From the IMG/VR virus record IMGVR_UViG_2778261179_000010: a DNA stretch of 5,858 bases, one strand, 5' to 3'. Every line of letters begins with the position of its first letter. Position 1 is the stretch's first letter. The DNA is from a virus. Taxonomy: Duplodnaviria; Heunggongvirae; Uroviricota; Caudoviricetes. Position numbers and translations under genes: made by a program. Of the stretch, positions 215 to 5,622 are shown one piece after another. A model generated the notes under the pieces. The model saw only the letters and a program-made list of their open reading frames with translations. It was not told the DNA's origin and did not search any database.

Positions 215-260
215 AAACTTACATCTTGAAATAATCACATTGATTAGATGAATATTTATC
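215..260 (+). promoter_or_regulatory. Candidate porin promoter region: TTGAAA -35-like hexamer (226..231), weak -10 candidates around 249..258, overlapping an OmpR-box-like motif
   Basis: AT-rich region about 60-90 nt upstream of the porin ATG. CTTACATCTTGAAATAATCA resembles the ompC C1 OmpR box (TTTACATTTTGAAACATCTA) as I recall it. The -10 hexamer is poor, so the call is tentative. Confidence 0.25.
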
Positions 261-307
261 GCGCAGTGACATCATTTTTTAATAATAGTTCAAAAAAAGG
301 GCTCACG

Positions 308-1390
308 ATGAAAAAATTAACAGTGGCAATTTCTGCTGTAGCTGCATCAGTACTGATGGCGATGTCTGCTCAGGCAGCTGAAATTTATAATAAAGACAGT
401 AACAAGCTGGATCTATATGGGAAAGTTAATGCCAAGCACTACTTCTCCTCTAATGATGCAGATGATGGTGATACTACTTATGCCCGTCTTGGCTTCAAAG
501 GTGAAACCCAAATCAACGATCAACTGACTGGTTTCGGTCAGTGGGAATATGAATTCAAAGGCAACCGCGCTGAATCTCAAGGCTCCTCCAAAGACAAAAC
601 CCGTCTTGCATTTGCAGGCCTGAAATTCGGGGACTACGGCTCAATCGATTACGGCCGTAACTACGGTGTAGCATATGACATCGGTGCGTGGACTGACGTT
701 CTGCCAGAATTCGGTGGCGATACCTGGACCCAAACAGATGTGTTCATGACTGGTCGCACCACTGGTGTTGCAACTTATCGTAACAACGACTTCTTTGGTC
801 TGGTTGATGGTCTGAACTTTGCTGCTCAGTATCAGGGTAAAAATGACCGCACTGACGTAACTGAAGCTAATGGTGATGGTTTCGGTTTCTCCACTACTTA
901 TGAGTATGAAGGATTCGGTGTAGGTGCAACCTATGCTAAATCTGACCGCACTAATAATCAGGTTATCTACGGTAACAACAGCCTGAATGCATCTGGTCAA
1001 AATGCTGAAGTATGGGCAGCTGGTCTGAAATATGATGCGAACAACATCTATCTGGCTACCACCTATTCTGAAACCCAGAACATGACTGTTTTTGGTAATA
1101 ACCATATTGCCAACAAAGCACAAAACTTCGAAGTAGTTGCACAATATCAGTTCGACTTCGGTCTGCGTCCGTCCGTTGCTTACCTGCAATCTAAAGGAAA
1201 AGACTTGGGTGCGTGGGGTGATCAGGACCTGGTTGAATATATTGATGTAGGTGCAACCTATTACTTCAACAAAAATATGTCCACTTTTGTTGATTACAAA
1301 ATCAACCTGATTGATAAGAGCGATTTCACGAAAGCATCTGGCGTTGCTACCGATGATATCGTTGCTGTAGGTATGGTTTACCAGTTCTAA
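308..1390 (+). CDS. nmpC: Outer-membrane general porin, OmpC/OmpF/PhoE family, prophage-encoded NmpC/Lc/OmpD-like; 360 aa with 23-aa signal peptide
   Basis: Same frame as track ORF 248..1390, but the real start is ATG 308 where a classic signal peptide begins ([23 protein letters not shown], then AEIYNKD). AAGGG Shine-Dalgarno about 8 nt upstream. Porin hallmarks: [82 protein letters not shown]-terminal VYQF. Position next to the Q gene matches nmpC in DLP12. Confidence 0.93.
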
Positions 1391-3550: not shown

Positions 3551-3571
3551 AAACGTCCCCGTTTAGCGCAG

Positions 3572-3604
3572 AAGTCACCGGAGGAGTTCAAACTCCGGTG
3601 ACTT
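3572..3604. repeat. Perfect inverted repeat / stem-loop (AAGTCACCGGAG - 9 nt - CTCCGGTGACTT), 12-bp stem
   Basis: Seen directly in the sequence, in the intergenic region between the HEPN-cassette stop (3674) and the ylcH-like ORF. No T-run follows on either strand, so it is not a classic intrinsic terminator; it may be an operator, an RNA structure or a module boundary. Confidence 0.5.
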
Positions 3605-3673
3605 AATTATGACAAGTTGATTATTGAAAATCAAAAGTCATTTAAACAATAATGATACCCAGCAAGAGATTTC

Positions 3674-4075
3674 TTATTTTAACTCATAGATCAGACAGTC
3701 AACGATTTCTAAACCATTTACCATAGAATTAGAAACGCGAACTTTACCATCGTTGACTCTAGCAAATCCTTTTAACATTTTATAAACAAAAGCTGAATCC
3801 CCCTTAGCCTCAATTGCTTCTAATGGTATCGGCTTATACTTTTTTGATATGCTATTTCTATTTATCTCACTGATTTTTCTATATATTTCTGCCGGCCCAC
3901 GTTCTGAGAAGTCACTGATAACTAAAATATATCTCCAAGATAGATCTGGGTAATAAAACCACATTGCAGCATCAATAGTTAAATTCTGTAACTTGAGTTT
4001 TTTTAACAAAAATTGACCTGAGAATTCCATATCTTTTGTCAACTCTCTGCCGATTACCAGTGTGCTTTTACCCAT
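3674..4075 (-). CDS. Hypothetical protein, 133 aa, second gene of the HEPN cassette (candidate cognate partner)
   Basis: Track ORF. The ATG at 4075 has a GGAG Shine-Dalgarno about 10 nt upstream and lies 22 nt inside the 3' end of the upstream HEPN gene. AT-rich codon usage like its neighbour. I see no nucleotidyltransferase (GS...DxD) or other recognisable motif. Confidence 0.6.
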   Translation of the reverse strand: MGKSTLVIGRELTKDMEFSGQFLLKKLKLQNLTIDAAMWFYYPDLSWRYILVISDFSERGPAEIYRKISEINRNSISKKYKPIPLEAIEAKGDSAFVYKMLKGFARVNDGKVRVSNSMVNGLEIVDCLIYELK

Positions 4076-4470
4076 TTCAAAACTCCAGAATTTTGGTCAC
4101 CTACAGCATCAAACAATTGTTCGGCCATAGCTTTACTTATGTTATTGTCGTATCTAAATTGCTCGCTCCAGTCTTTAACGACCGACCAGTTAATCTCCAA
4201 CGAAACATCATTTTTTGCGTCAGCAATCAAAATTTGATGTAAGTTGGCAATTTTGAGAAGTTGCGACAAATCATGAGTATATGAATCATTTACGACTTTT
4301 TTGTTTGGAAACTCATGTTGTAAAAATGACTTGGCAATACAGGCCTTCAATGCACATTCAACTGCATACCCACAAAGATAATATGCACCATGAAAAAAGC
4401 CATGATCAAGCAAGCATTTGGCCTCATTAAGCCTAGTGTCAGATAATGCTTCAAGGTCGTTTTTATTCAT
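4054..4470 (-). CDS. HEPN-domain-like protein, 138 aa (candidate toxin/RNase or nucleotide-binding component)
   Basis: Track ORF. The N-terminal helix pair LNEAKCLLDHGFFHGAYYLCGYAVECALKACIAK, the HDLSQLLK segment and C-terminal FRYD fit the classic HEPN four-helix signature. No obvious Shine-Dalgarno. The region is markedly AT-rich relative to the flanking prophage genes. Confidence 0.62.
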   Translation of the reverse strand: MNKNDLEALSDTRLNEAKCLLDHGFFHGAYYLCGYAVECALKACIAKSFLQHEFPNKKVVNDSYTHDLSQLLKIANLHQILIADAKNDVSLEINWSVVKDWSEQFRYDNNISKAMAEQLFDAVGDQNSGVLKWVKAHW

Positions 4471-4715
4471 ACAATTATAACTTGAATTATCCTAATTTTT
4501 ATGATTATACCCTTATCAGGTATGATGTAGGAACTGAAAACAATATTGGATATCATTTTCGGTATTTCTCTGCAAATTCCAGCCCACAGGATCTCGGTGT
4601 ACAATCTGTCGCTGATCGCGCAAATTTAGGGTCAATCACTTCATTTTTTGCATCAAACCCTCACTAACATCGAACGATTATAGTACAAGTAGTGTTCTTG
4701 ACTTCTCATTAAACC
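4471..4715 (-). promoter_or_regulatory. AT-rich promoter region of the HEPN cassette with two perfect TATAAT hexamers on the - strand (4509..4504 and 4682..4677)
   Basis: About 300-nt intergenic region between the ant-like gene stop and the HEPN ATG. The proximal TATAAT is about 34 nt upstream of the ATG. The matching -35 elements are weak (for example AAGTCA). Confidence 0.35.
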
Positions 4716-4769
4716 GTCAGCATTCAATTAATTACAAAATACTAGCGGCATTTCTCTCCCGCAACTTTA

Positions 4770-5378
4770 TTACAGCCGTTCAGAACGTAAATGCGTCAAT
4801 ACTCGACTCCACTTATCATCCTGCCACGGCCGGAATTTTACATGTGCCGTTTCTCTGGCAAGGATTGCCTGTGCCTTATTGAGTATCCGGGGATATTCTT
4901 GTTCGATTGAAGTGAAGCGACCGGCTTCGCGGTGTTCTGCTACCTGAAGAAGCGGAGTGACGTTTTGGCAAGCGGTTAACATTGTGTCACTTGCCCGCCA
5001 TAACCAAGCAAGTGTGCAAAGTTCGTTATCAGTGAATTGTTTTGTGATTGGGGATTGTTGAATTTCTCGATCGAGAATATCCAGCACCCAGCGGCGGAAT
5101 TCTTTGGCCACAGGAGTGCGGGCGAACATGGCGATCAGATGGGCGCCACGGAGGGAGAAAATGCGAGTCTTCTTACGATAATTTCCTGAGGTCGTTGATT
5201 CGACGACCTGAGACATTCCGTCAGTAAACTCATCAATATTTTTGTTGTAGATGTCGGTTACTGCTTTGGTGCTGGCATATTTTAATGCTGCCGCCAATTC
5301 TTTGCTGGTAAACCAGATCTGGTTGTTGTGATTTATAGGAGTGAATTTTACATCGCGGAATGCGAGCTGAGTGACCAT
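4770..5378 (-). CDS. Phage antirepressor-like protein (Bro-N / AntA / P22 Ant N-terminal-type domain; Roi-like), about 202 aa
   Basis: Track ORF 4770..5615 begins at a TTG. The domain signature (LAFRDVKFTPINHNNQIWFTSKELAAALKY ... TRIFSLRGAHLIAMFARTPVAKEFRRWVLDIL) starts right after the ATG at 5378, so that start is preferred. The alternative ATG at 5513 cannot be excluded. Confidence 0.6.
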   Translation of the reverse strand: MVTQLAFRDVKFTPINHNNQIWFTSKELAAALKYASTKAVTDIYNKNIDEFTDGMSQVVESTTSGNYRKKTRIFSLRGAHLIAMFARTPVAKEFRRWVLDILDREIQQSPITKQFTDNELCTLAWLWRASDTMLTACQNVTPLLQVAEHREAGRFTSIEQEYPRILNKAQAILARETAHVKFRPWQDDKWSRVLTHLRSERL

Positions 5379-5540
5379 AGCGATAATCTCGTTTTGAATT
5401 TGAGCTATCACCACCGACGACGCCAATCGACTGGTGGTGGACTGTGCAAGGTTGGCGTAACCGGTCAAAACGAAATCCGGCGCTTCCGAAGAAGCCCTCA
5501 CACAGCCCACCATAATTTTTGTGTAGACGTGCACTGCGCA

Positions 5541-5562
5541 TAAAAAAACCGCGAACGCGGTT
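5541..5562 (-). terminator. Small GC hairpin (ACCGC-GAAC-GCGGT) followed on the - strand by TTTTTTTA; candidate intrinsic terminator or attenuator
   Basis: Seen directly. The stem is short (5-7 bp) but the T-run has 7 T's. It lies about 160 nt upstream of the preferred ant-like start. Confidence 0.45.
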
Positions 5563-5622
5563 ATGCGTCGTTTTGATGTCCGGGACGCCAATCCCGTGTG
5601 CCGATTTTGCGGCAACGCACAG

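Follow-up and report, generated by a model that had tools for sequence, protein, structure and literature searches.

What does a small HEPN protein do when it travels, in an AT-rich cassette of a lambdoid prophage, with a partner that has no annotation, and do the two genes make up a toxin–antitoxin (TA) or abortive-infection module, as an earlier note made from the DNA letters had proposed? The window, by which we mean the whole stretch of 5,858 nucleotides that was analyzed, is part of a DLP12-like lambdoid prophage at the tRNA-Arg site adjoining fimZ, and its sequence is identical in E. coli O26:H11 strain 11368 and in many further STEC genomes. The features on which the argument turns are these:

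3635..4763, no strand assigned: acquired insert of ~1.13 kb, GC 0.353, in conserved prophage backbone
3674..4075, minus strand: partner gene, 133 aa, WP_000520500.1, a RefSeq 'hypothetical protein'
4054..4470, minus strand: HEPN gene, 138 aa, WP_001038620.1, classical PF05168 type
4054..4086, minus strand: translational-coupling junction, with a 22-nt overlap of the HEPN and partner genes
4471..4763, minus strand: AT-rich upstream non-coding region of the insert, 293 bp, GC 0.362
4770-5378 (RefSeq CDS), minus strand: antirepressor-like gene (P22AR_C and Bro-N)

The RefSeq CDS annotation contains the same two genes as the ORF calls at 4054-4470 and 3674-4075, in agreement with the earlier note's description of two minus-strand genes of 138 and 133 codons overlapping by 22 nt. 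According to RefSeq and Pfam the order on the minus strand is antirepressor-like gene, HEPN, partner, ylcH-like, ybcN, ninE, ybcO, rusA, ylcG and quuD, and the cassette does indeed lie between the antirepressor-like gene and the ylcH/ybcN nin module. Just upstream of the antirepressor gene are a C4 antisense RNA (5430-5517, minus strand; Rfam, 82.5 bits) and the Hfq-binding sRNA isrK (5542-5614, minus strand; Rfam, 64.1 bits). Because these two RNAs overlie its upstream part, the 281-aa ORF at 4770-5615 is over-extended relative to the RefSeq CDS, and the same Rfam matches place ant behind a P1/Gifsy-type RNA switch. Beside quuD the prophage carries an intact ompC/nmpC-like porin gene (248-1390, plus strand; Porin_1, E 3.7e-153), the K-12 DLP12 counterpart of which, nmpC, is broken by IS5. 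Outside the window, the immunity/replication region of the same prophage (L001:16838-17377) has a gene for a 'toxin YdaT domain-containing protein' adjoining a small transcriptional regulator, and these two may be a second TA-like pair.

The cassette differs from its surroundings in composition and in distribution. The insert at 3635-4763 has a GC content of 0.353, against 0.492 in the nin genes and 0.473 in ant, so the AT-richness noticed on first reading is real. A megablast search of 5,426 complete E. coli genomes with the cassette found it intact in 186 (3.4%), nearly all at ≥99.5% identity, and the carriers include O26, O103, O111, some O157:H7 and other STEC. In another 101 genomes the match is confined to the backbone flank at window positions 3560-3634 and the cassette is lacking, and in ~680 other genomes with antirepressor homologs the alignment begins only at ~4764. 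Since the flank-only and the antirepressor-only matches stop at these points, we place the insert at ~3635-4763, including a 293-bp AT-rich upstream region of its own. The slot itself is variable: ybcL/ybcM occupy it in K-12 DLP12, as stated in the earlier note, an unrelated gene for a 169-aa hypothetical protein fills it in strain SCU-313, and in STEC409 the cassette is present with a different upstream neighbor. Taken together, the boundaries, the differing cargo and the presence in 186 of 5426 genomes establish the cassette as a horizontally acquired moron in a variable cargo slot, low in GC and far from universally conserved across these prophages. In strain UTME-10 (L143, locus 4275-6368) an IS3 element lies at a distance of 84 nt from the HEPN ATG, on its upstream side, and the prophage has lost its replication and immunity region; the cassette and the nin/lysis genes are intact in this decayed prophage remnant left by the IS3-mediated deletion. 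Downstream of the partner gene there is a perfect 10-bp inverted repeat, GTCACCGGAG ... CTCCGGTGAC (3574-3602, minus strand), with no T-run behind it; because it sits in backbone DNA common to the 101 cassette-less genomes, it is not a terminator of the cassette.

Does the cassette bring its own promoter? The private intergenic region had been credited with two perfect TATAAT boxes, and we find three on the minus strand of the 299-nt upstream region (4682-4677, 4509-4504 and 4479-4474), compared with a mean of 0.30 in mononucleotide shuffles (P(≥3) = 0.0026). The boxes are therefore there, one more than claimed, but none of the three has a good −35 and a consensus promoter scan of the region scored no higher than dinucleotide shuffles. 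Likewise, a promoter/terminator scan gave neither a convincing sigma-70 promoter nor an intrinsic terminator belonging to the cassette. The hexamer at 4509-4504 is kept, as G(G/T)GTATAAT and 33-40 nt before the HEPN ATG, in the E. coli, Klebsiella and viral-contig copies, the DNA further upstream being unrelated in the Klebsiella and viral-contig copies that have it, and it is still present after the IS3 insertion in UTME-10. This lends modest support to its being a candidate −10 element carried by the cassette. The pair in the Klebsiella prophages follows straight on the gene before it, as part of the nin operon, and lacks a private intergenic region.

That the upstream gene encodes a HEPN protein, as first proposed, is borne out by a Pfam PF05168 match over residues 12-118 that scores 27.8 bits (cutoff 22; E 3e-6) and by a predicted all-alpha up-down helical bundle that superposes on solved HEPN domains; RefSeq already has the HEPN annotation. 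The nearest structures are uncharacterized classical MNT-associated HEPNs and sacsin, and the family profile matched no PDB sequence even at E ≤ 10. The residues that never vary among 101 homologs are R13, L20, Y31, Y35, E38, C39, K42, F54, P55, H66, L71, W101, R106, Y107, G129 and W133. The Rx4-6H RNase motif is absent from these homologs: no His lies 4-6 residues past the invariant R106, and positions +4 to +7 after it are variable, with an indel; Y107 and the distant H66 are invariant. The residues E38-x3-K42, H66 and R106-Y107 fit the classical 'nucleotide-binding' HEPN signature. Absence of the canonical motif makes 'RNase toxin' an assumption for this protein, so that of the earlier claim of a HEPN RNase toxin the HEPN identity holds and the catalytic motif does not. 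In the PF05168 'HEPN-T' group another residue often stands in place of the motif His, and a His conserved at a different site has been speculated to contribute, while HEPN domains without catalytic residues are considered probably inactive (Anantharaman et al., PMC3710099). Judged from its residues, then, nuclease activity of this HEPN protein is plausible but not assured.

The partner had been said to have no recognizable domain, and searches of Pfam, NCBIfam, PADLOC and PDB, made with the single sequence and with profiles of 24 and 122 sequences, returned nothing meaningful. PHROGs contains both HEPN and partner only as families of unknown function. An exhaustive HMMER search (E ≤ 1e-3) collected 798 partner clusters at 50% identity and, among 150 listed, nearly all are single-domain proteins of ~130 aa. 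Only W39, G60 and Y130 are invariant throughout the family; L12, G20, L27, W47, Y65, R113 and D126 are nearly so. The earlier statement has to be qualified in one respect, since a confident model predicts an alpha/beta fold that is weakly MNT-like, with MNTs and other Pol-beta-fold NTases, MntA (5yep_A) among them, as the best fold matches. A Foldseek search of PDB with the model gave nothing significant (best E 0.086, to a de novo design). The predicted structure has no GS-loop/helix element between its first two strands, the family has neither a GS...DxD motif nor a conserved acidic dyad, and none of 122 members gives a Pfam NTase match. Homology to MNTs was put to a profile comparison and not supported: hhalign against an MNT profile purpose-built around 2rff (from PDB MNT sequences retrieved with a bait consensus, the profile itself consisting of real sequences only) returned a probability of 0.35%, which is not significant, with the sole aligned segment in the register that the fold predicts. 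We regard the partner as an unannotated family with a weakly MNT-like predicted fold that lacks an NTase active site; it may descend from the MNT antitoxins that are the usual companions of HEPNs of this class.

The two genes are joined in an exact manner. The GGAG that had been assigned to the partner is found at 4086-4083 as its Shine-Dalgarno sequence, inside the HEPN Gly129 codon and 7 nt before the ATG; this ATG (4075-4073) sits in the HEPN Trp133 codon, and the TGG-TAA end of the HEPN gene doubles as the invariant Leu6-Val7 of the partner. Across phyla, 70 of 81 loci have an overlap of precisely 22 nt, 41 of the 42 viral contigs have an ATG at −22, and the Gly129 codon supplies GGAG or GGGG as Shine-Dalgarno sequence across loci. 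With both start codon and Shine-Dalgarno sequence encoded there, the coupling is written into conserved HEPN codons. We also observed a few variants. At L022, L146 and similar loci the Trp133 TGG is TGA, giving a HEPN protein five codons shorter and a 4-nt ATGA overlap. A Bryobacterales MAG (L083:6001-6777) has one extra T (AAATTGGG versus AAATGGG in L044 and L045) and consequently a fused 258-aa HEPN-partner ORF; a natural fusion and a sequencing error are both conceivable, and we give it little weight. In a Desulfobacterales MAG (L014:6332-6565) a second, partial partner-like ORF (E 1e-21) follows just past the complete partner and may be the remnant of a tandem duplication.

Pairing is equally strict. 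The partner gene lies directly downstream of the HEPN gene and on the same strand in 80 of 80 genomic loci and in 42 of 42 IMG/VR viral contigs, and where loci were seeded with the partner instead, a HEPN gene was upstream in all that had sufficient upstream sequence (three distinct loci of five, plus a duplicate contig). Distances among HEPN proteins and among partners co-vary, with a Mantel r of 0.69 against a permutation maximum of 0.145. Mean pairwise identity is 49% for HEPN and 34% for the partner, HEPN being the higher in 98% of pairs, as one would expect if a regulator evolves faster than its effector. At unsaturated dS both genes have a dN/dS of 0.03-0.12, which means purifying selection on the two proteins. 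Such selection at the protein level, along with the confidently predicted protein fold, excludes that the downstream gene acts only as an RNA of the abiV2 kind. Two small, adjacent and co-oriented genes that are inherited together, with a patchy and mobile distribution, are also what is generically expected of a TA module. On the strength of these comparisons HEPN and partner are an obligate, ancient and translationally coupled unit.

To see how far this unit extends, one genome per species was scanned with a back-translated pattern, and the 80 genomic loci discussed here were retrieved as the best matches. A HEPN relative is encoded in at least 577 species, among them Bacteroidota, Chloroflexota, Acidobacteriota, Desulfobacterota, Planctomycetota, Verrucomicrobiota, Nitrospirota, Spirochaetota and many Proteobacteria, as well as in one archaeal MAG. 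A Pfam census of 147 immediate neighbors at the 80 loci yielded 178 families, none of which occurs in more than three loci; the neighbors are mostly housekeeping genes (Ddl, EF-P, PrmA, epimerases), and AAA_15/AAA_21 ATPases occur beside the pair at only 3 of the 80. Single copies were found between purM and purH and beside a PIN toxin gene. With no third gene conserved and no general association with defense islands, the pair behaves as an autonomous TA-like cassette, and its housekeeping neighbors outside prophages favor 'selfish TA' over 'dedicated defense'.

Within the Gammaproteobacteria the pair is accessory-slot cargo in three unrelated prophage types. An unrelated lambdoid prophage of Klebsiella has it in the corresponding slot, ahead of NinG and Q, and in Acinetobacter (L092-L094; L093:9884-11233) it lies at a prophage end by umuDC-like, SRAP-domain, AbiH-family and integrase genes, in a group of cargo genes of accessory or defense type. 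Among 50,697 deposited phage genomes, megablast with the cassette gave no match and tblastn with the partner gave one, Klebsiella phage Kp4864-1. The description of the pair as a prophage moron is thus correct for E. coli and too narrow overall, the pair being an ancient and widespread two-gene module beyond prophages too. Searches of the literature for the HEPN and partner accessions, the PHROG identifiers and PDC-M28 found nothing, nor did we find a paper or a defense-system model covering the pair, which agrees with the earlier suggestion of an undescribed HEPN-based system. What appears to be undescribed before is the obligate, phylum-spanning pairing and hard-wired coupling of a HEPN protein with this unannotated partner.

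We give about an even chance to the reading that the cassette is a self-contained module, TA-like or for phage defense, of a HEPN effector and an inhibitor that binds it. Its anatomy, HEPN identity, pairing, coupling, selection on both proteins, mobility and position as prophage cargo are established, and toxicity, neutralization by binding, an RNA target and a benefit in defense are inferred. The HEPN protein, most likely a toxin that targets or binds RNA, would be the effector and would be kept inactive in a stable complex of ~1:1 by its obligate, translationally coupled partner. Because NTase catalytic residues are absent, the partner probably acts by binding and not by enzymatic modification. 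Loss, displacement or titration of the partner, on phage infection or on loss of the element, would free HEPN to hit a cellular target that is highly conserved and most probably RNA, and lead to growth arrest or abortive infection. The module would move horizontally as a selfish TA-like unit; in Enterobacteria and Acinetobacter it has become prophage cargo, and there it would be expected to provide the lysogen with abortive infection or superinfection exclusion, or to stabilize the prophage. The HEPN identity, the strict pairing and coupling, co-divergence, purifying selection on both genes, a patchy distribution in E. coli with nearly identical copies in several STEC serotypes, the lack of a third gene, accessory slots that include one with an AbiH neighbor, and weak matches to the PADLOC model PDC-M28A (described below) all suggest such a module, for which the toxin-first systems RnlAB and LsoAB and the prophage-borne HepS (also below) are precedents. 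Counting against it in the comparisons are the missing Rx4-6H His, the housekeeping surroundings, the lack of a convincing sigma-70 promoter and the position of the Klebsiella pair inside the nin operon. Furthermore, classical type II TA systems need an excess of labile antitoxin, and strict coupling here would give a roughly equimolar partner. A bolder form of the same idea, which we hold tentatively and think rather doubtful in full, is an undescribed, phylum-spanning branch of HEPN conflict systems in which the AMPylating MNT antitoxin has given way, by replacement or by degeneration, to a catalytically dead, MNT-like pseudoenzyme that inhibits a non-canonical HEPN (R...Y or distal His) by binding alone, the 22-nt overlap acts as a lock, and the outcome in STEC and Klebsiella prophages is abortive infection.

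The strongest competing explanation, which we nonetheless consider unlikely, is that the two proteins form a non-toxic regulatory or ligand-binding complex in which an inactive HEPN and its partner bind nucleotide or RNA. The HEPN protein itself lends this some credence: its canonical His is missing, as in domains considered probably inactive (PMC3710099), and its closest structures are uncharacterized classical HEPNs and sacsin, the latter being, with the C-terminal domain of kanamycin nucleotidyltransferase and with MtlR, one of the analogous inactive HEPN domains. Environmental copies amid housekeeping genes would suit a regulator, and so would the resemblance of E38-x3-K42, H66 and R106-Y107 to 'nucleotide-binding' HEPNs. 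On the other hand, patchy and mobile distribution, random insertion sites and capture by prophages are unlike a housekeeping regulator, no conserved neighbor is available to be regulated, and HEPN proteins that stay ~50% identical from phylum to phylum imply that the target is universal.

An improbable alternative is enzymatic neutralization resembling type VII systems, in which the partner would be a divergent but active NTase (or another enzyme) that modifies HEPN, for instance at Y107, as MntA AMPylates HepT. The predicted fold of the partner, with MntA among its best matches, the MNT-associated HEPNs nearest in structure to the HEPN protein, the invariant Y107 adjoining R106, and the retention by the partner of near-invariant R113 and D126 and invariant Y130 all speak for it. 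Against it, only W39, G60 and Y130 are invariant in the partner family, neither GS...DxD nor a conserved acidic dyad is to be found, Pfam NTase matches number 0 of 122, the hhalign probability is 0.35%, the modeled strands lack the GS-loop/helix, and the gene order is opposite to that of MNT-HEPN operons (PMC3710099). We consider it least probable of all that the pair is expressed with the nin/delayed-early operon to serve the phage in its lytic cycle (host RNA takeover, counter-defense) and not the lysogen, for although the pair lies in the nin region on the strand of the early-right operon, abuts the preceding gene in Klebsiella with no private intergenic region, and has no strong predicted promoter, the 80 genomic loci (best matches of the scan of at least 577 species) are chromosomal with mostly housekeeping neighbors, a partner homolog occurs in only one of 50,697 deposited phage genomes, an IS3-mediated deletion has left the cassette whole in a decayed prophage, and the cassette-borne TATAAT is conserved.

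If the reading of a HEPN effector held by a binding inhibitor is confirmed, the repertoire of HEPN toxins would gain a large family, present in at least 577 species and with ~800 unannotated partner clusters at 50% identity, together with an effector in which the textbook Rx4-6H is missing and a protein inhibitor of a new type. It would bear on whether classical PF05168-type HEPNs are nucleases and on how HEPN toxins can be controlled without AMPylation. It would also give a function to a cargo cassette of O26, O103, O111 and some O157 STEC prophages, which matters for how stable prophages are in these pathogens and how susceptible the pathogens are to phages. Testing the hypothesis would cost little, since a pair this small and self-contained is readily cloned.

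Finally, we compared the pair with known systems. HepT/MntA, of type VII, is the closest family, likewise consisting of two genes with a small single-domain HEPN, of mobile and patchy distribution, and related in structure on both sides, the HEPN being nearest to classical MNT-associated HEPNs and the partner, by its predicted fold, to MNTs. The likeness fails on the Rx4-6H motif, on the NTase motifs of the partner and on gene order. In MNT-HEPN operons the MNT gene is upstream of the HEPN gene (PMC3710099), whereas here the HEPN gene comes first in 80/80 genomic and in 42/42 viral loci; there is no Rx4-6H, and the partner is devoid of NTase motifs, matches no Pfam NTase family and shows no significant similarity to an MNT profile, which makes AMPylation unlikely as the means of neutralization. 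AbiV of Lactococcus is a HEPN RNase with the RNA antitoxin abiV2 (bioRxiv 10.1101/2024.05.05.592566); in both cases a HEPN effector is followed by a small downstream gene needed for control, as we would predict for our pair, and both share the closest structural neighbors AF0298, TT1696 and sacsin. HepS, a solo HEPN abortive-infection protein of the Gifsy-1 prophage that cleaves tRNA and is triggered by phage structural proteins (PMC13043305), is also a small HEPN protein in a lambdoid prophage accessory region near an antirepressor; however, HepS has a canonical R100-H105 and no partner gene, in contrast to the obligate pair without the motif described here.

Among defense-system models, a check of the locus with PADLOC, which the earlier note had called for, gave a match of HEPN to PDC-M28A and none of the partner. 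All 24 HEPN family members that we tested match PDC-M28A, weakly (best E 7.5e-12, on a 138-position model), and the partner family matches neither the PDC-M28 components nor any other PADLOC model; canonical MNTs match PDC-S09 and PDC-M05A. We therefore rejected identity of the pair with PDC-M28, an untested candidate system, and from the weakness of the matches regard PDC-M28A as a sibling HEPN family.

The order of genes and the proposed mode of inhibition recall a different group. RnlAB and LsoAB are toxin-first HEPN systems. RnlA-RnlB and LsoA-LsoB are described as anti-phage TA systems of E. coli, each with a HEPN toxin and a small antitoxin protein (PMC8266594). With these our pair shares the toxin-first order, a small downstream binding inhibitor (predicted here), a mobile-element context in E. 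coli and a putative link to phage defense. By this analogy the module would work most like the toxin-first HEPN systems with a small protein inhibitor, of which RnlAB and LsoAB are the examples.
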